A program made the translations under genes and the position numbers. From Brevinema andersonii (GTDB lineage Bacteria; Spirochaetota; DYKD01), in the NCBI GenBank assembly GCA_020722765.1, contig DYKD01000004.1:10250-74249 (forward strand): a stretch of 64,000 bases of DNA. Direction: 5' to 3'. The notes beneath the pieces are model-generated. The model did not search any database. It was not told the DNA's origin and saw only the letters and a program-made list of their open reading frames with translations. Below, piece after piece: positions 9,201 to 33,322 of this stretch. Position 1 is the first letter of the stretch, and the number at the start of each line of letters is the position of its first letter.

Positions 9201-12200
9201 AGAGTTCATCGGTTGCAACGGCGTTAATTGTGCGGTGATAGTCTGAAACGACGCCTCTTAAAGCACCGAAGATGTTGACAAGCCCTGACTGGGCAGTGGC
9301 TAACTCCTCGGCGCTCAATGCCCCTGATTTTATCTCCGCAAAGGTAGCTTCAATGTTTAACATCATGCCTTGAATTTCAGACCACAGTTCGGCAAATGAG
9401 CGAACAGGTTGGCCTCCTGTCTTAATGGCTTCTTCGTTAAACTTAGCAACCTTCTGATCCAGATCTTCGGTTGTATAACCTACATGTTTGAGACTGTTTA
9501 GTATTTGGTCGATGTTTTGTTTAGCTGCAGCTAAAAATTGGGGATAGATTGCTAATGGTTCGCCCGCCCTTTTAGCAGAATGACCAAAAACTTGTAAGTT
9601 ATTGTTTAATTCTACAAATGCATCTACAATGGTCCGTGTGGCACGCTGTGGACCTTCACCAAATTCACCGCCACCAACACTACCCATCAATTTAGAGGTG
9701 ATAGCTCCAGCTTTTTGACCAATCTCACTCTCACCACTAGATAATGCGGTCGCAACACCTCGTACACCCTCTACAACTTTTTCCTTTTGTTCGAGGAGTT
9801 TTTGTAGTTTGACGGCCGTTAATTCATCAAACGTTTTAGCAACCGCTGGTTTCGTAGTGGCAATAGTAGATTCAATGCCTGCGACTTCCTCTTCAGCTGA
9901 CACTAAGGCCTCTTCCTTTCCGGGCACGACTTTCGCAGGCTCTTTGGCTCTTCCTGGAGCAGCGGCGACCTTCAAGCGTTGACGCGATTCAGCTTCTACA
10001 CGTCTACTATACGCCCTCTCTAAAATTTCTTCGTAACGAGAGAGTTTATCTAATGCTGCGATGGCTGGAGTGATTTCGGCGATCGACGCTTGTAGGTCGA
10101 TAACACCCCCAGCTGCAGGGACTGCACTCCTAGCAATGGTTTCAGAGTGAGTTCTTATCTTCCTCTTAACAAGATCAAGAACACTTTGAATTTTTGATGC
10201 TGACCATGACTCGACGCGTTTCGACCACCGTTGAAAGAATTCTCCCATTCCAGTTTCGATGTCACGAACTTCCAACATCGACCTAAATGCACCCTTCATT
10301 CCACCAGCTGAAAGTATTTCTCCTTCTGGTTGAGCGAGATATGAAGGTGCTGCTAAAGGTTTACCCCAAGCAAGAGAGGAGAATTCGCCTTGCGCGACAA
10401 TGCCGCGTGCTTCCCTAACTCGGGCTTCTAGTACTTGTGAGAGCTTTTCGTTTAACCTGTTAGTAGCAGCTCTTACAAAGCTCACATACTTCTCACCAAA
10501 ACCCGATTGCTCAACTTCTTTTAAATATTGTATGCTAGCCTGTTGAATTTGTTGGATTTTACTACCCGAAAGCTTTGCGATCCAGGATTGTGTACCACCT
10601 ACTTCACTGCCAAACAAGATTTGACCAACACCTTTTGACAGAAACCCTTCCTTCGAAATGTCGACTGGAAGTTTCATCATTTCCTTGAAAGCGGAGTAAA
10701 CTACCTGCGGATCCTCTGATAATAGGGCGGTGCGGATCGTCCTGCCAAACTCTCGGAAATGACCGCGCAGTGTTTTCTTGGCACTGTCCATCAACAAGTC
10801 TAATCTTGCAGCAAGTTCGGCTTGCCCCACATCAGTCTCAGCCATACCAGATTTAACAGATTTGCGGAAGATCTCAAAGGACTGTGCGGTTACTTCAGCG
10901 TTAAGTTTTGCCTGCTGTAACGCAAGATTAATTCCCGCTGTCTTTGGGTGTGCAGCGTCACCAGCTGCTACTATCGCGACTCTCAGCTTCTCCATCAATT
11001 CGGCTAGTTTTTGCACAGAACCTAAAGCGGGTTGAAAGAATCTGTGGGTTGCCTCCGGAGCGTCTTTAAGGGACTTGAGTGCGAAGTTCATTGCAGCAGC
11101 AAAATTTTTGGTGTAATTAGCCGCTCGCTCAATTAATTCAAAACGGCCAGTCCCAAACATTTCTGCTACTGTAAGCTGTTTTTCAGGTTTAGGTGGGAGA
11201 AGGATTTCTGTGTACTCGCGCGCGAATTCAGGACCTTCAGGGATAAAAGCTCTTCGGCCAATTTTACGCGACATGGTCGTCATCCATGCATCAAAAGACA
11301 TTGCGACATCTTCGGCAGATGGTGGCGTGAAGAGCCTACGAATTAAATCTGGTAGCGTACCAGTTGGGGGTTGTACAGACTTACCAATTAAACTGGTCAT
11401 GTAGTCACCCCAGTCCTGATATGCCTTTTTAAGGCTTTCTATCGCTGGGATGTGTGCGCCATAAATACGAGCAACGTATTTATCGTATTCGGCCCGATGT
11501 TTTTCAAATCTAATTGATTCAGTGGCTGGAAGCCCAAACTCTACACCTTCAGCAGCAAGTCGGACTAATTCGTGACTCTTGTTGAGCATAAACTGGACAT
11601 TGCGACCAGCGTCGCCCGCAGCTCTACTATACTGAGTCATTCTAGATGCTAACTCACTGAGGGCTTGAGCGACATTAAAAAATTTCCACATTGGCATCAA
11701 ACTTGTGTGAAGTTTAGCAAGGGCTTCGGTCGCGCGCTCTACATTAAACTCACGGGTGAACGCAGCTCTAACAGCCGTCTTGTATTCCTCAATAATTGGA
11801 GCTGGAGTAGTAGCGGTAACACCTGGCCGCTCCCCGATTGCTAAAAGTTGAGCTTCTACTTTTTCTATTTTTTCGGGTGTACTTTTGGGTGTAAGTCGTC
11901 TGCGTATCTTCCGTGCCTCGGCTTGAGCTTCTTCCACTCCGACACCAAATTTCTTTAAGACTGTGAAGGCTTGTTTAAGTTGTGTGGTGTCAACACGAAA
12001 ATCTAACCTAAGTCCTTTTTCAAACTCAGATTTTACCTTTCTGAATTCGTTCCTTAACTTTTCAAGACCTGCAACGTCTTCTTTCTTTCCATAGGCGGTC
12101 ATCTTCAGTAGTTGTTGGTCGATCTGCTCCAAAGCGGATTGAGTCTCGCTTAGACTACTAACAGTGATTTCTTTCTTCAAGACGTCTTCGAGCTGCTGCA

Positions 12201-15434: not shown

Positions 15435-15816
15435 TCATGCCACCTCCAGGAAACGGGAAGGGTAAACCACCCAGACGCAGATTCCATTTTTCCGAATATT
15501 TCTGGACAAATGGTATGATGAACTCAAAAATCGCGTCACCATCAAACTTGCTATCAACATCTTCCTCGGAAATTCCAAGAATCTTGCTGACAACAAGGGT
15601 TATTTTTTCGGGCGCTTGGGTTGTAAGGTACTCCATAAGAGCAATCCCTGGGGCTCGGTCGGTGTGCCCAAAAAGATCTTCAGGAATACTCGCAAGAGCT
15701 GTCCCGATAATCTTCAGGATTTCCCTCTCCTTACCCCAGGGAAGCTTTAGTCTGACTTCGACCGCCTGTCCGTCGATGTCATGAATGGTAATTTTGTCTT
15801 GTGCTTGAGTTGTCAT
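15358..15816 (-). CDS. Tail assembly chaperone (gpG-like)
   Basis: Between tail tube and TMP; start moved to MTTQAQ at 15816 because GGAGG precedes it. Confidence 0.7.
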   Translation of the reverse strand: MTTQAQDKITIHDIDGQAVEVRLKLPWGKEREILKIIGTALASIPEDLFGHTDRAPGIALMEYLTTQAPEKITLVVSKILGISEEDVDSKFDGDAIFEFIIPFVQKYSEKWNLRLGGLPFPFPGGGMIGTTQPGPQTALDSTDIKPAGEQTH

Positions 15817-15848
15817 AGGCCTCCAAGACCTCCTCATTTTAATTTACT

Positions 15849-18287
15849 TTAGCTGGCCGTTTTTTCAACAACCACTTTGAATAGTTGTTTACCAACTTCC
15901 AGTGTGTTGCCACCCCAGTCTTTGCAAGTGCGAGTAGAGTTATCCCACGGAACCATAGCGTTAAAGGTGTAAGGCAGTTTGTGGTGAGTGTCACCGAAGT
16001 TAAACTCAACCGCGCCATCACCTTGCGCTTGCCAGATGTACACATTAATGGTCCAACCATACGGGGTTTGGTGCACGAGCTTCAGCGCAACGTTGCTGAA
16101 CGAGATCTGTCCGCCGAAATCGAGGATTTCGGTGTTGGACGCCGAAGAAGTAATGCCCGCACCCAATGCGTACATCAGGTTGTTGACGTTCCATTCGCAT
16201 TCTGGACTGTTGCATCACCCTTTTATAGGGCGTTCCCACACTCAGTCTCTGCAAGTGAGCCGAAAGTCTCACGAAATCTCGAAAAGATCTTGCCTTTAAT
16301 GTCCTGACGCCGCCTCCCCAAAGGCAACGCAAGAATTAAGTCTGCTTGAGATCTTTGCTGGCCCTCTAAATGGTCGTAAACTGCTTCTAGGATTCTTTTC
16401 ACTTTACGTCCTTTAACATAACGCGCTGGCTGATCCAAGATCCCAAAAACATCTGAAGCCGATTCAAGGCGGAGAACTGGGGTGATATGTGGATTACCTG
16501 CTCCATTAGTCAACCTCCAAATAGAAAGTTTCCCATTCCGCACGACTTCATATAAAGCTTGAGGGTCGATTTTCGTGATACTTGAAACAATCTTCGACTC
16601 TTCTTGAGCGTTGGCATCCAGATGAAAATCATACTTCCACTTATAAGCAAAGCACTTAAAAACGGGTTGTCCCATCCATTCAAGAAAATCACGAATGTAT
16701 TCGTTTGCAATATCAGTTTGAAACATGGAGCCCTTCCACAGCTGCTTTCTTGCTTGAATTCCATGGTTTTTTAATTGCAGAACGATGCGGTCAACATCGT
16801 CTTCACTAAACCCGTGGGTACAAATAGCGCAAGCATTTTTTGAAATCCACCCATCACCACAATATGCCACGTTAGCAACTAAAGGGGTAAGGTTGAAATC
16901 TTTCGGTAAACACTTGTGGCTATTTTCATCGTACCAACGTTTACGAAACTCAGCAAGAACCGACTTGTTGTATGCTTCCAATTGGTAAACTGTTTTGCCT
17001 ACAGAAAACCCGTCTTTCTGAGGAGCGATGCAAGCGTAAGTTTTCCATCCTAAGTCAGTGAAAAACTCACGCACTTCCTCAAAATACTGCTTATGAGTAG
17101 TTGCAAAACGTACTTGAGGAGAAGGCATCTTTGTGACATGAATGTCGCTAAAAATTAGTCCTTCTAAGATCTCAAAAGCACGTTGTTCCATTTTCATCCT
17201 TTTGCGTTCGCCATTAATTAGTGGAAATTAACTTTTCTAACGCTTTCCAGCGTAGCGGGACCGAATGTTCAATCCCGGAGATTTTCAGGGTCGCTGTTTC
17301 CTGTGTCGCAAATTGCGCAATTAAGGTTTTAGGTGATGTAAATTGTTGAAATCATTAACAATTTACTTTGTTACCGTAGGTCTTTTAATCCCCTACTTCT
17401 GCACATTTCTGTGCAGCCCAGACTATATCTTCCCTTTCGGGGGCGGTGCTCGTGTCCGGCTTATTGGTTTCCTGGTCCTCACCGGTTAGTCGTTGAACCT
17501 TCTCTTCTACAGTGTTCAGGATTCGAAGAGCTCGGCTGCTGATTGCCCTCGGCTTCACGTTAGGGTGTTCCAGCAATTCTCCGCCTTTTTTTGACCGAGG
17601 CTGAAATTTGTACTCCACACCTTTGAAAAAGGACTTTCCCAAATAAGGAAGTAAACCCTCTAAAACTTGATACATTTTTTCGTTCATTTTCAACCTCGGG
17701 GGATTCCCAAAATAATTAAAATCCCTGAAATCAAGTGTGTTACCCTAGGAGCTCTTTATCTCCTAGTTCTGTACATTACTGTACAGTTCAGACTATGTCT
17801 TTCCCGTCTCCTCGGGAGGCGGCACTCGTGGGAGTAATTACTGCCATATCTTTCGACTTAGGCTCGACTCCTAGTCGTTGAACCTTCCAGAGAGTTTCCC
17901 CTCTAGCTTGGCTGCACGTTGTCCTTTGGCCGGGATTCATTATCAATTCCAAAGGATGTTCATGCAATTCACCGCCTTCATTCTTCATCACTGCATTAAC
18001 TGGAGAACAGTGATGCGATGCCACGTGTTCCTTGAAACCCCACTTATACGCCATTACTGTTCCTTTCAGTCATTTTGTTTTTGTTGTTGTTTGTTGGCGT
18101 TTAAAAAGTGTAATGATTTCAAGAAGTTATTTTTAACATCCTCCTTAGTTCGAGTGGATGATAGGACTGCTCCGGACTCTACTGCCCCTACGTCGACGGT
18201 GGGCGTTGTGCCAGAAGGTCCGATGTAAAGAACACACGGACCAATCGACATACGGTTTGTGTCGAATTGTGGCAGATTGTAGGGCAT
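15849..18287 (-). CDS. Major tail (tube) protein, spliced; exons 18136-18287, ~17719-17731, ~17272-17333, 15849-16197 (about 191 aa)
   Basis: Joining gives one open frame of 576 nt: ...TRTKEDV/FQG(F or S)/PKTLIAQFATQETATLKISGI/EWNVNNLMYALGAG...; lies between tail terminator and chaperones. Confidence 0.85.
16198..17271 (-). mobile_element. Group I intron 3 of tail tube gene, carries LAGLIDADG ORF
   Basis: P1 CGGGAU/GUCCCG with U.G at the 5' splice site; P10 CAUUCG/CGAAUG; P3 UUUCCAC/GUGGGAA; P7 GACUG/CAGUC; terminal G at 16198. Confidence 0.88.
16223..17197 (-). CDS. Intron-encoded LAGLIDADG homing endonuclease or maturase
   Basis: Motifs ILEGLIFSD and VANVAYCGDG, plus LTP and ICTHGFS typical of the LAGLIDADG_2 type; first motif lacks the DG glycine. 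Confidence 0.8.
   Translation of the reverse strand: MKMEQRAFEILEGLIFSDIHVTKMPSPQVRFATTHKQYFEEVREFFTDLGWKTYACIAPQKDGFSVGKTVYQLEAYNKSVLAEFRKRWYDENSHKCLPKDFNLTPLVANVAYCGDGWISKNACAICTHGFSEDDVDRIVLQLKNHGIQARKQLWKGSMFQTDIANEYIRDFLEWMGQPVFKCFAYKWKYDFHLDANAQEESKIVSSITKIDPQALYEVVRNGKLSIWRLTNGAGNPHITPVLRLESASDVFGILDQPARYVKGRKVKRILEAVYDHLEGQQRSQADLILALPLGRRRQDIKGKIFSRFRETFGSLAETECGNAL
17334..17718 (-). mobile_element. Group I intron 2 of tail tube gene (boundaries +/- 3 nt)
   Basis: P1 GGGAUUU/GAAUCCC; P2 CCGAGGUUGAAA/UUUCAGCCUCGG; P AAUUGCUGGAA; Q AAUCAGCAGCC; R GUUCAACGACUA; S AAGAUAUAGUCUG; P9 CUGCACA-GAAA-UGUGCAG. Confidence 0.85.
17732..18135 (-). mobile_element. Group I intron 1 of tail tube gene
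   Basis: P3 AGGCGG/CCGCCU; P AAUUGCAUGAA; Q CGUGCAGCC; R GUUCAACGACUA; S AAGACAUAGUCUG; P9 CUGUACA-GUAA-UGUACAG; 5' exon ends GAUGU, which can pair with GCAUC at 18017-18021; terminal G at 17732. Confidence 0.85.
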
Positions 18288-18374
18288 ATTCCTTTCCTCC
18301 CCTAACTTAATAAGCTTGCGAGGCTCGCCATTTAAATTGTCAGTGTTTTGGAGGAACGGTGCCCGATCTTATTG

Positions 18375-18572
18375 TTATTGTTGCTGTTGTGTGAGGCTGC
18401 ACTGTTTTCCGCACTTGCGACATAAAGTCACTACACGTTGAGCTTCTTCGATGAACACGTAGTGGTCTTTATATTTCATGCGTAGTACTTTAAGGTCGGA
18501 GGTTAGATAACCCAATATAGCCTCGCAGCTAGGGCACCTCCAAGGTAGGTCTTTAACTTCATGATCGCTCAT
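18375..18572 (-). CDS. Small zinc-ribbon protein (Mu Com-like pattern)
   Basis: WRCPSCEAILG...LCRKCGK, 65 aa. Confidence 0.6.
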   Translation of the reverse strand: MSDHEVKDLPWRCPSCEAILGYLTSDLKVLRMKYKDHYVFIEEAQRVVTLCRKCGKQCSLTQQQQ

Positions 18573-30808: not shown

Positions 30809-33322
30809 TTAGCGCAACGAAACAAATCTGATTTGGGGCTCTCTAGCAAGACCTTTAACCGCAATATAAATCGCGTCAATTAAATCAGCGGTAGTTAAGG
30901 GGAAGCTGACCATTTCATTAATGAAATCGTTATGTAAATCACGACGTATTAACAGTTTGTGACACCGAATAAGGTTTGACAAGAATTCAACGCGAGATTC
31001 CTTTGAACCACCAGTCCTGACTTTCACAATCGGTAAAATCACATCTAATTCCTCTAAATATTCATGAAAATATGTTTGTAGCGCAAATGCTTCGATTTGA
31101 ATAGCTATCGCGTGCGGAAATTTCTGGTAAAACGAAAGGACGATGTCGCGTTGATCGGCAAGCCTCAGATTTTTTCGTACCAAATATTCTAAAACGTACG
31201 CCCTTTGTGTGCCCCTTTCTTGGCCAACCGCAGCGATGGCAAAAGCGCTGTGTCTGTCAGTTTTTTCTAAGCCCGGAGCACACAAGTCAACCCCAATTAA
31301 AACATCTAAACGCTCATAGGCTACTTCATGAGGCTCATAATATGAAAGATCAAAATCCTCAATTGTAATGTAATCCCCTCCGCCTGTAAAAGTCACGTCA
31401 TTTTGGTATTGGAGACGAAAAACGTCTGGGCCGTACATAGCTTCGATCTGCTGCAACTTCTCGAGAGGAAACATCTCTTCCCAAAATGATGTGCCATCTG
31501 GATTAATTGCGGGCTGGATAAGCGATCTCCAGCCCCCTTGCGACTCTTCGAGCTCTAGCAACTTGTGGTAAAGATCGTCACGATGATACGATGTGCCTAT
31601 TACATGAGCAGCAGTTTCATGAGAAATGCTCAACGTAGGCATAGCAACAAACCTAAACCAATCCCAAATTTTTCGACGTAGGGAGGGAGAATCACGCGAC
31701 TCAACATCAACTACATCATCAAAAATAATAACGTCGAAGTGCTTACCAGCAAGAGTTGATCCAACGCCTAAAGCGGTGAACGTCGCCTCCGCCATCGACT
31801 GGCTTCTCATCAAAGTAACTTCCACGTTGTTCCATTTCATTGCTTTGTCTGGCTGGATTAAATCCGGCCACACCGCACGAAGACGTTGGTTAGTTTCGAG
31901 AATGTTTTTAATTTTACTGACGAAGCTGCTAGACAAAAGGGATGATTTTGAAATGATACCTATACGAATGTTGGGGTTACGCAACGCACGCCAAATCGAG
32001 TAGTAATGACCACACACTGTTGAATTATGACTTATCGCACCGTTAGCTAGAAAGGTACCATCCATGGTAGATAGATCAACGGTTAGACCCTTCGTCTTGC
32101 GTACCGACTTCACATACTGTAGGAAATGAGGGAAGCGGAATAAAAAAGTAAAGTTATACAGTTTGGGGACAATGTGAATGTTTTCTTTGACGAATCTCTC
32201 CGCCAATAACGGTTTGTCCTCGTAATTTTTTTGACAGTCTTTTTCGAGGCGAATTTTAATAATAGGCAAAACAAATGGGTCCCTCTGAATTTCTGCCGCT
32301 AACAGTCTCGCGAGCTCAGCAATCTGGCTCTCAGTATAATCACACCGATCAGTATGTCCACGGAGAAAGTTGTGAAAGCTTCTGCGAAGTTTAGCAGATT
32401 TCTGCAGTAGTTTATATCCAATCCTCGTCAAGGGAAATCCCAAGTTTAAAAACCATTTCTGCACTTCGATCGCTTGTTGCTCGGTAAATTTAACATACTG
32501 ATTATACCACCAAAAAGTGTGAGCAATTGTTCTTGTTGCAGATAGTGAGCACTCCCTAAGGCATACAGGTATTAGAGGGCTGTCGAAATTCCTGGATTTT
32601 AAGAAATCCAGGAACTTAGGCGGGATTGATTTCCACTCTTTGTGATTGAAAAATCTCCAAAGAGGGATCGCCATTTTCTGACGTGCTCTCGGTTGATGCC
32701 AGATCTTCTCCCAACCCTCTGGAAAGTTGAGCCAAAAGAATGCTAAAGCAGAATACCACAATGCGGGAGGAACGTTGAATGGATTATCAGAGCTGTCAAC
32801 AAATTTCCGCCAATCACACCTAAACACGATTCTGTCATGTTCAGTAAGAAATCGGGCCTCACGAAACTTAAGATGAAACCCATTCCAAATCAGCCACCTA
32901 TGTTCTGGGGTGCATCTTAAGACGTAGCCATCTTCGGTTTCGATTTCGAGTATATCATCAAGCCCATTAGAGTAAAGTTGTGTAGCCCTAGTCTCTCCCA
33001 GGCAAGACTCTAAGATGAAATCAGTTGAGGTCGTAAAAGGAAGGGTTGTTTCACAAGGAAGGGCTTCTTTGATATACTTTAGTCCCTGCGGTGTAGGAAT
33101 TAAAGTATCGTCAGCGACACACTTCCAAGACCCCCGAGGACCTAAAATTAAGGTCCTCGGGTGAGTCATTTGGAATTCGATCCACTGATTGTGGAATGGT
33201 TGCAGGACTGTATCTAGGAAAGCGGCACAAAAGAAATCAAACCTTTCTTCACCAGCTATGCGAAGAAGCTTTATTTCCTCCTTTTTTATGGGTGCAAGCT
33301 TAAACTTATTCAATGAAGTCAT
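30809..33322 (-). CDS. terL: Terminase large subunit with intein
   Basis: Walker A GPRGSWK/S split by intein; GKHFDVIIFDD; IGT; LQYQN; nuclease GVDL and DLIDA. Confidence 0.92.
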   Translation of the reverse strand: MTSLNKFKLAPIKKEEIKLLRIAGEERFDFFCAAFLDTVLQPFHNQWIEFQMTHPRTLILGPRGSWKCVADDTLIPTPQGLKYIKEALPCETTLPFTTSTDFILESCLGETRATQLYSNGLDDILEIETEDGYVLRCTPEHRWLIWNGFHLKFREARFLTEHDRIVFRCDWRKFVDSSDNPFNVPPALWYSALAFFWLNFPEGWEKIWHQPRARQKMAIPLWRFFNHKEWKSIPPKFLDFLKSRNFDSPLIPVCLRECSLSATRTIAHTFWWYNQYVKFTEQQAIEVQKWFLNLGFPLTRIGYKLLQKSAKLRRSFHNFLRGHTDRCDYTESQIAELARLLAAEIQRDPFVLPIIKIRLEKDCQKNYEDKPLLAERFVKENIHIVPKLYNFTFLFRFPHFLQYVKSVRKTKGLTVDLSTMDGTFLANGAISHNSTVCGHYYSIWRALRNPNIRIGIISKSSLLSSSFVSKIKNILETNQRLRAVWPDLIQPDKAMKWNNVEVTLMRSQSMAEATFTALGVGSTLAGKHFDVIIFDDVVDVESRDSPSLRRKIWDWFRFVAMPTLSISHETAAHVIGTSYHRDDLYHKLLELEESQGGWRSLIQPAINPDGTSFWEEMFPLEKLQQIEAMYGPDVFRLQYQNDVTFTGGGDYITIEDFDLSYYEPHEVAYERLDVLIGVDLCAPGLEKTDRHSAFAIAAVGQERGTQRAYVLEYLVRKNLRLADQRDIVLSFYQKFPHAIAIQIEAFALQTYFHEYLEELDVILPIVKVRTGGSKESRVEFLSNLIRCHKLLIRRDLHNDFINEMVSFPLTTADLIDAIYIAVKGLAREPQIRFVSLR
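32024..33121 (-). mobile_element. Intein in TerL Walker A (366 aa)
   Basis: Begins CVADDTLI; block B LRCTPEHRW; ends TVDLS..FLANGAISHN followed by Ser. Confidence 0.9.

Follow-up and report, generated by a model that had tools for sequence, protein, structure and literature searches.

The terminal guanosine (omega G) is near-universal in group I introns; in one Coxiella intron an A reportedly stands in its place. In Staphylococcus phage Twort, orf142 is interrupted by three group I introns, and the similar IA2 introns 2 and 3 surround a 23-nucleotide (nt) exon that has been seen both skipped and included (Landthaler & Shub 1999, as related in excerpts of PMC10136302). The same excerpts report skipping of a 34-nt exon between two introns in the 23S ribosomal RNA (rRNA) gene of Coxiella, and exons of less than about four codons occur regularly in mitochondrial genes, as stated in excerpts of PMC10352661. 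Here we describe a phage tail-tube gene in which two related group I introns lie on either side of a 13-nt micro-exon, and in which the second of these introns is predicted to end, at the junction that the homologs of the gene require, in an adenosine. The gene lies on contig DYKD01000004.1 of assembly GCA_020722765.1 (assigned to Brevinema andersonii), in the stretch of 64,000 nt from position 10,250 to 74,249 that we analysed as a whole and refer to as the window; positions below count from its first letter. All genes of the window are on the minus strand, and the stretch is a segment of a phage genome.

Like Twort orf142, as far as the excerpts describe it, this is a phage gene with three introns, two of them related, devoid of open reading frames (ORFs) and flanking a very short exon, with cross-pairings that would allow removal of one large intron; it differs from orf142 in its shorter exon (13 versus 23 nt), in its tail-tube host gene, in a downstream intron without G at the predicted productive 3' site and in being deduced from sequence. 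In Coxiella, one of the two introns reportedly lacks the canonical omega G, going by the title of Raghavan et al. 2007 (J Bacteriol 189:6572). Both loci have a short exon set between a pair of group I introns of which one lacks the terminal G; the Coxiella case concerns a bacterial rRNA gene, introns of different subgroups, a 34-nt exon and experimental proof, whereas here we deal with a phage protein gene, introns of the same family and inference from sequence. The locus is further comparable to the organellar mini-exons between group I or group II introns, described in excerpts of PMC10352661, in that an exon of a few codons with conserved residues lies between two self-splicing introns.

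A 13-nt exon and an intron apparently ending in adenosine

The tail-tube gene starts at 18287 on the minus strand, between a tail-completion gene and an ORF of 4831 amino acids (aa), and is interrupted three times (Table 1). We posit that this gene, which belongs to a large phage, was invaded by three group I introns at sites no more than 75 coding nt apart, and that introns 1 and 2 belong to one ORF-less family whose insertions would have left a 13-nt exon for the F-Q-G-F tip of a long beta-hairpin. Both match the Rfam group I model RF00028 (gathering score 50 bits) over its whole length, intron 1 at 18016..17769 with 65.5 bits and intron 2 at 17639..17399 with 65.1 bits (model positions 1-253). 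They have the core, P9, P9.1 and tail in common, both are ORF-less and start with UAA, and their P7 elements are alike. The micro-exon between them, which the initial annotation had given as 11-13 nt, is exactly 13 nt long (17731-17719), with intron 1 ending at G17732. Introns 1 and 3 are preceded by U at the 5' site and close with G at the 3' end (G17732 and G16198, respectively); intron 2 likewise follows a U (U17719) but ends in A17334. Hand folding suggests a P1 for intron 1 in which GAUGU pairs with GCAUC at about 18021-18017.

The position of these junctions follows from relatives of the gene. We looked for related loci first with the sequence of the last exon and next with an alignment. 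IMG/VR provided three and JGI metagenomes four, of which two are the same contigs again and one is a fragment, and all of them are intronless at these sites; none was found in genome_contigs, and a tblastn search of exon 4 against 50,697 phage records gave no match. They comprise three distinct full-length relatives (L002, identical to L001 and L007; L003, identical to L008; and L009) and the fragment L010. At the turn the intronless relatives read VYQGFPKT, VFQGFPKT and IFQGFPKT, with the surrounding stretches TKEEVYQGFPKT, TKEEVFQGFPKT and SKEEIFQGFPKT, and further on KISGIEWNVNN. A protein search recovered 64 homologs at E <= 1e-3 among 208 candidates. We aligned L003, L002 and 39 of the 64. 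Among the 25 omitted are P0012, a fragment from the window itself, and P0002, whose sequence equals that of L003. Across this alignment Q53, G54 and P56 are invariant in 41/41 homologs, and neither a gap nor an insertion falls between them. The homolog P0014 (246 aa) displays an insertion of ~70 residues after a GAG motif, elsewhere than the introns described here, which could be the read-through of an unrecognised insert.

Joining the exons 18287-18136, 17731-17719, 17333-17272 and 16197-15849 (splice model A) yields a protein of 191 aa that is identical to L002 at 156/190 positions, with one gap column in the alignment overall and none at the junctions. The conserved turn is rebuilt from the window solely by the predicted junction U17719|C17333, and intron 2 would have to end in A17334, since only this junction restores the Q-G-x-P turn of the homologs. 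The reading FQGFPK with an intron ending in A, which had been proposed at the outset, is in agreement with this: the homologs read QGFPKT, and a junction at C17333 makes A17334 the last base of the intron. Where omega G is expected before the homolog-defined 3' exon the base is A17334, and the nearest G (17353) lies 19 nt upstream of it. The missing terminal G at the only junction predicted to be productive is real in this sequence, and it is rare.

We propose that intron 1 splices first and canonically (U18136 ... G17732), and that intron 2 would then use its P1, with seven pairs to the last seven bases of the micro-exon, to join the micro-exon to C17333, the scissile bond lying after A17334. 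Selection of the 3' site would depend on a short P9.0, in which U17336 and C17335 pair to GGG in J7/9, on a weak P10 and on a hairpin in the tail of the intron that hides the cryptic site G17353; splicing from U18136 to G17353, with the micro-exon skipped, would be a likely by-product. We infer from the sequence that splicing takes place, that A17334 would be tolerated in the guanosine site and that the events would run in this order, and we see an even chance that intron 2 joins the exons behind A17334 while a side reaction skips to G17353. Provided that the A is genuine and splicing occurs, this would be the second natural group I intron without a terminal guanosine, Coxiella providing the only other one found in a non-systematic search of the literature, and the first such intron in a phage protein gene known to us from that search. 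The locus would then constitute a compact natural system (about 800 nt) for 3' splice-site choice without a guanosine contact, and likewise for two adjacent ribozymes that share a 13-nt exon without skipping it.

Table 1. Features of the interrupted tail-tube gene (window positions).
Feature	Position	Strand	Description	Basis
Exon 1	18136..18287	minus	ATG at 18287; 3' end GAT GT; last base U18136	ORF list; tblastn of an intronless homolog (residues 1-51); splice model A
Intron 1	17732..18135	minus	group I, 404 nt, ORF-less; 5' UAA, 3' G17732	boundaries equal the homolog junction
Guide-like segment S1	18111..18129	minus	near the 5' end of intron 1	inverted repeats I1 (17/19) and I3; duplex energies
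Micro-exon	17719..17731	minus	13 nt, codes F-Q-G-F; the last two bases of exon 1 complete a Val codon	homologs have [FY]QGF
Intron 2	17334..17718	minus	group I, 385 nt; 5' UAA, 3' A17334	boundaries from homologs
Intron 2, P10 strand	17712-17707			
Intron 2, P1 3' strand	17707-17700			
Intron 2, P2	17699-17688 with 17606-17595			
Intron 2, core	17639-17399			
Hairpin in the 3' tail of intron 2	17338..17366	minus	perfect 10 base pairs; 9-nt loop holding G17353	inverted repeat I4, 100%
Exon 3	17272..17333	minus	62 nt; PKTLIAQFATQETATLKISG followed by two bases that open an Ile codon finished by exon 4	tblastn, 88% identity to homolog
Intron 3	16198..17271	minus	1074 nt; LAGLIDADG endonuclease ORF 17197..16223; U at -1, 3' G16198	
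Exon 4	15849..16197	minus	remainder of the tail-tube protein and stop codon	tblastn, 80% identity to homolog

Predicted fold of intron 2

RNAfold forms P1 of intron 2 from G17725-U17718 and G17707-C17700, such that the last seven bases of the micro-exon and the first base of the intron are paired, with two U.G pairs at the top. The wobble U17719.G17706 falls at the homolog-required junction, and the U.G pair had indeed been set after 17719 by the initial annotation. A P2 of 12 base pairs (bp) adjoins P1 directly. A 16-nt repeat (D5) that includes the 5' strand of P7 is 100% identical in introns 1 and 2, the 3' strand of P7 is also common to both, and the guanosine site predicted from the sequence is like that of canonical relatives. 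Intron 2 displays no sign of a remodelled guanosine site, because this P7 stretch is identical over 16 nt to that of intron 1.

The tail of intron 2 runs through P9, P9.1, GGUAACAAA, the 10-bp hairpin with its 9-nt loop (17366-17338) and AUCA into the exon. The hairpin, already recognised earlier as a perfect 10-bp stem just before the intron end, has its arms at 17366-17357 and 17347-17338 and ends 4 nt upstream of the exon junction; the fold of 17420-17320 has a z-score of -4.47, with 0/200 shuffles equally stable. It is present in intron 2 alone and absent in all relatives seen. J7/9 reads GGG in intron 2, GAA in intron 1, in the introns of loci L013 and L014 and in introns A and B of an 88-kilobase IMG/VR phage (G001), and GAU in intron C of G001. 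Directly ahead of its last base, intron 2 has the dinucleotide UC, and intron 1 has UU. This is a weak hint that P9.0 (U17336 and C17335 with the GGG of J7/9) may have co-varied towards the A17334 site.

Guanosine-ending alternatives and exon skipping

The tail of intron 2 offers a G at 17375, 17374, 17366, 17359 and 17353, and the next G is found only at 17319, within the conserved exon. All models that end the intron in G shift the frame, lose the Gly or add 2 to 6 residues to the turn. With G17353 as the 3' end and the micro-exon kept, the frame shifts and a stop is reached at codon 63; with the 5' site moved one base upstream the frame is open, yet the turn acquires six extra residues. Joining exon 1 directly after G17353 leaves an open frame of 193 aa (155/190 identical to L002), in which QQFTS replaces QGF, the Gly is lost and the turn grows by two. 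By hand, G17359 and G17366 lead to stop codons, 5' sites that are one or two bases off in combination with other 3' sites give nothing that ends in G, and the unlike bases at the two borders prevent both splice sites from being shifted jointly. Ribosomal bypass or frameshifting across the 19 extra bases was dismissed too, as no matching signals were seen by eye.

The flank of G17353 had been described as a mimic of the 3' junction of intron 1, and the comparison upholds this description. The segment 17354-17340 matches the last two bases of intron 1 plus the micro-exon at 12/15 positions, and the corresponding 15-nt pattern, with these 12 letters fixed, has two matches in the window, both of them here, where 0.04 are expected; 0/100 shuffles gave two. 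Only the second match counts, since the pattern was derived from these two sites. The copy in the intron 2 tail is complementary to S1 (18129-18111) at 17/19 positions, 12 of them in a row, and S1 sits where the relatives carry their P10 strand. In a scan of the 836-nt transcript by 25-nt windows, three partners of S1 stand out: an internal strand of intron 1 (-15.1 kcal/mol), the 3' junction of intron 1 itself plus the complete micro-exon (-14.3 kcal/mol), and the tail of intron 2 (-12.9 kcal/mol); the next best partner reaches -11.4 kcal/mol. With constructs of 23-29 nt, the own-junction pairing (-13.9 kcal/mol) was reached by 1/2000 shuffles and the pairing with the intron 2 tail (-12.9 kcal/mol) by 0/2000. 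G17353 would be presented to intron 1 much like its own G17732, and exon skipping is mechanistically plausible because the copy at G17353 pairs with the guide-like segment of intron 1. The guide of intron 2 can, for its part, pair with the end of exon 1 through 13 Watson-Crick pairs out of 18, and hand reading adds two further G.U pairs, one of which is U18136.G17706.

These pairings bear on the possibility that the productive splice runs from U18136 to G17353 and takes out a single unit made up of intron 1, the micro-exon and the greater part of intron 2, the QQFTS protein being the product and the micro-exon and the 3' site of intron 2 being relics. We consider this unlikely. It draws on both cross-pairings, on G17353 being the only G that gives an open frame and on a tail that fits the family consensus at G17353 once 10 nt are removed, and the excerpts of PMC10136302 report that tandem group I introns skip an exon in Twort orf142 and in Coxiella 23S rRNA. 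However, the skipped product is unlikely to be a working protein, because it has another residue in place of the invariant Gly54 and is 2 residues longer in a turn whose Q, G and P do not vary in 41/41 homologs. The micro-exon moreover still codes FQGF in frame and the P1 and core of intron 2 are intact, which would be unexpected of relics, and G17353 lies with its flank inside a very stable hairpin. As this hairpin buries most of the junction copy, it would work against skipping. The initial annotation had left the choice between non-canonical 3' splicing and micro-exon skipping: the junction with an A end is the one best supported by the sequence, and skipping keeps its mechanistic plausibility without a product that is likely to work, so that it would plausibly be a side reaction.

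A more elaborate arrangement, in which the two introns form one programmed switch, strikes us as very doubtful. The unusually long guide of intron 1 (~15 nt) would select either its own 3' site or the copy in the intron 2 tail, intron 2 would ligate after A, and two tail-tube isoforms (QGF or QQFTS) would result in a ratio set by RNA folding, for instance by whether the 10-bp hairpin is closed.

Evidence against the adenosine end and the status of base 17334

Several observations weigh against ligation after A17334. The terminal G serves the second step of group I splicing, as set out in excerpts of PMC3984707, and the P7 of intron 2 is without any change that would favour A. The initially proposed P10, in which the guide UUUUGG pairs with the exon start at 17333, does exist, as the guide bases just 5' of the P1 strand form six pairs with one bulge with the first seven bases of exon 3. 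At -2.1 kcal/mol it is weak, however, with C17333 ranking about 7th of the 85 positions scanned, and the guide pairs better with 17370-17363 (-5.1 kcal/mol); because of this energy scan we dropped P10 as strong evidence. The P9.0 argument, for its part, is drawn from one sequence only.

The tails of related introns are also at odds with an A end. All six relatives with a clear tail, as well as intron 1, end GUAACA-N(3-6)-UG directly after P9.1. Deleting only the 5' arm of the hairpin from intron 2 recreates the exact 13-nt tail of G001 intron B, ending in G17353, and G17353 may for this reason be the ancestral end, which would be the strongest point against an A end of long standing; deleting the whole hairpin leaves a 13-nt tail ending UCA at 17334. 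DNA-pattern searches for close relatives of intron 2 returned 0, 9, 62 and >117 matches; the 62 come from genome_contigs and, judged by eye, are mostly not introns. None of these matches is like intron 2 outside the core, 8 tails could be parsed, and the collections searched provide no close relative of intron 2 with which the A could be compared.

The reads constitute a further point. For 15800-18400 no RNA runs are listed; three runs of one study are, and one of these (DNA, Logan contigs) contains the stretch. The contigs of this run stop at 17330 and resume at 17347, leaving 17331-17346 and thus A17334 uncovered, so that the A comes from the assembly alone. Two alleles of 18093-18225, a stretch that spans the border between exon 1 and intron 1, are present in this run, with 10 differences and depths of 6.7 versus 15.4. 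Both continue into intron 1, which indicates that the sample also contains a second strain carrying this intron.

A17334 might be foreign to the working phage, either as an assembly choice between variants or as an error, with the functional allele ending in G. A G at 17334 would leave everything canonical, with P1, P9.0, P10 and the junction unchanged, A/G is a transition and the run contains, at 18093-18225, another allele of the phage. Yet A is what the assembly, the sole sequence available, shows, the contig's word depth of about 13-15 in its sample makes single-base errors rare, and no variant sequence of this stretch is found in any collection searched. We hold this explanation, too, to be unlikely; were it correct, the locus would be another case of dense intron invasion of phage structural genes.

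Intron 3 and a putative endonuclease remnant in intron 2

The ORF of intron 3 matches PF03161 with 47.4 bits (cut-off 25) and phrog_11023 with E 1.2e-25. The intron itself has no Rfam group I match, even at E 10 on a 501-nt piece; its ends are group I-like by eye, as P1 has six pairs with U.G at the cleavage site, P10 is a perfect 6-bp helix and the last base is G, and a P7-like pair is found near its 3' end. It may possess a compact or divergent core that is overlapped by the 3' part of the ORF. The P2 region of intron 2 (17640-17693, minus strand) opens an ORF whose first 15 residues are 7/15 identical to the start of the LAGLIDADG protein of intron 3 (E 0.002 in a single comparison), and the two are alignable at the DNA level as well. 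This ORF resembles what would remain of a homing-endonuclease gene after its loss.

Phage context and integrity of the tail-tube gene

The window displays phage genes for a DnaB-like helicase, a DNA polymerase, SbcCD, a UvsX-like recombinase, a terminase, a portal, a head protease, a major head protein, a head-tail adaptor and a tail-completion protein. The upstream neighbour of the tail-tube gene matches phrog_5, and we call the 4831-aa ORF downstream the tape-measure gene by position and size only. The large subunit of the terminase is encoded by an ORF of 837 aa (30809-33322, minus strand); its PHROG match covers residues 434-829, with the N-terminal ~430 residues left unexplained.

The tail-tube identity is supported by structure prediction. 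The AlphaFold model of L003, built with the 41 sequences, has a predicted local distance difference test score (pLDDT) of 81.9, and a Foldseek search of the PDB with it ranks siphophage tail-tube proteins first (best E 3.4e-08) and gives 24 matches with E <= 0.001. QGFP corresponds to the tight turn of a long beta-hairpin, because the motif is flanked by the model strands 41-53 and 58-75. Two homologs, P0024 and P0030, reach 29.9 and 28.4 bits with Pfam PF25681 (Phage_TTP_17; cut-off 27), and the exon ORFs of the window and L003 are without a Pfam match.

We also weighed damage to this gene copy, in which either the insertion of a 29-nt hairpin or a change from G to A would have disabled the 3' site of intron 2 in a non-viable or complemented variant. 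The apparent LAGLIDADG gene stump in P2 makes intron 2 look old, and the absence of the hairpin from all relatives seen is a further point in favour of this reading. Against damage, all four exons are intact and in frame, the other large ORFs examined in the window are open, including that of 4831 aa, and the contig is present at the word depth given above. We regard such damage as quite unlikely. A dead tail-tube gene is in general unlikely in view of the tail-tube fold, the phage's own replication genes and the open large ORFs, and the gene is probably needed.

Relatives of introns 1 and 2

The nearest relatives found are introns in IMG/VR contigs. G001 (loci L015 and L083) carries at least three related group I introns in one structural-type gene, between exons of about 75 and 62 nt as read by eye from the sequence without homolog comparison. 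Its introns resemble intron 2 in the UAA start, in P9/P9.1 and in the GGUAACA tail, and the gene is like the tail-tube gene in having at least three introns; unlike intron 2, each of the three closes with a G that lies about 12-13 nt beyond P9.1, and none has the hairpin. At positions 900-2080 of L083, Rfam reports two introns with 96.2 and 48.5 bits, and a third copy upstream, with a mutated P7 strand, is not reported by Rfam; at 717-1181 of the same locus an ORF on the opposite strand shows a LAGLIDADG-like motif by eye.

A blastn search of the locus against phages hit 54 records, all through short core matches that cover <=4% of the query, and there is no second copy of the locus in its own genome. 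Among seven ORFs of the locus, three are on record in an exact-protein look-up, all as singletons from this contig. The best match of the intron 2 core in the phage database (76.7% over 115 nt) is to Alteromonas phage vB_AmaP_AD45-P1 (L011, 66479-68744). It lies within a thyX-type thymidylate synthase gene that is annotated as two coding sequences with HNH and GIY-YIG genes between them, and that may be a multi-intron gene.

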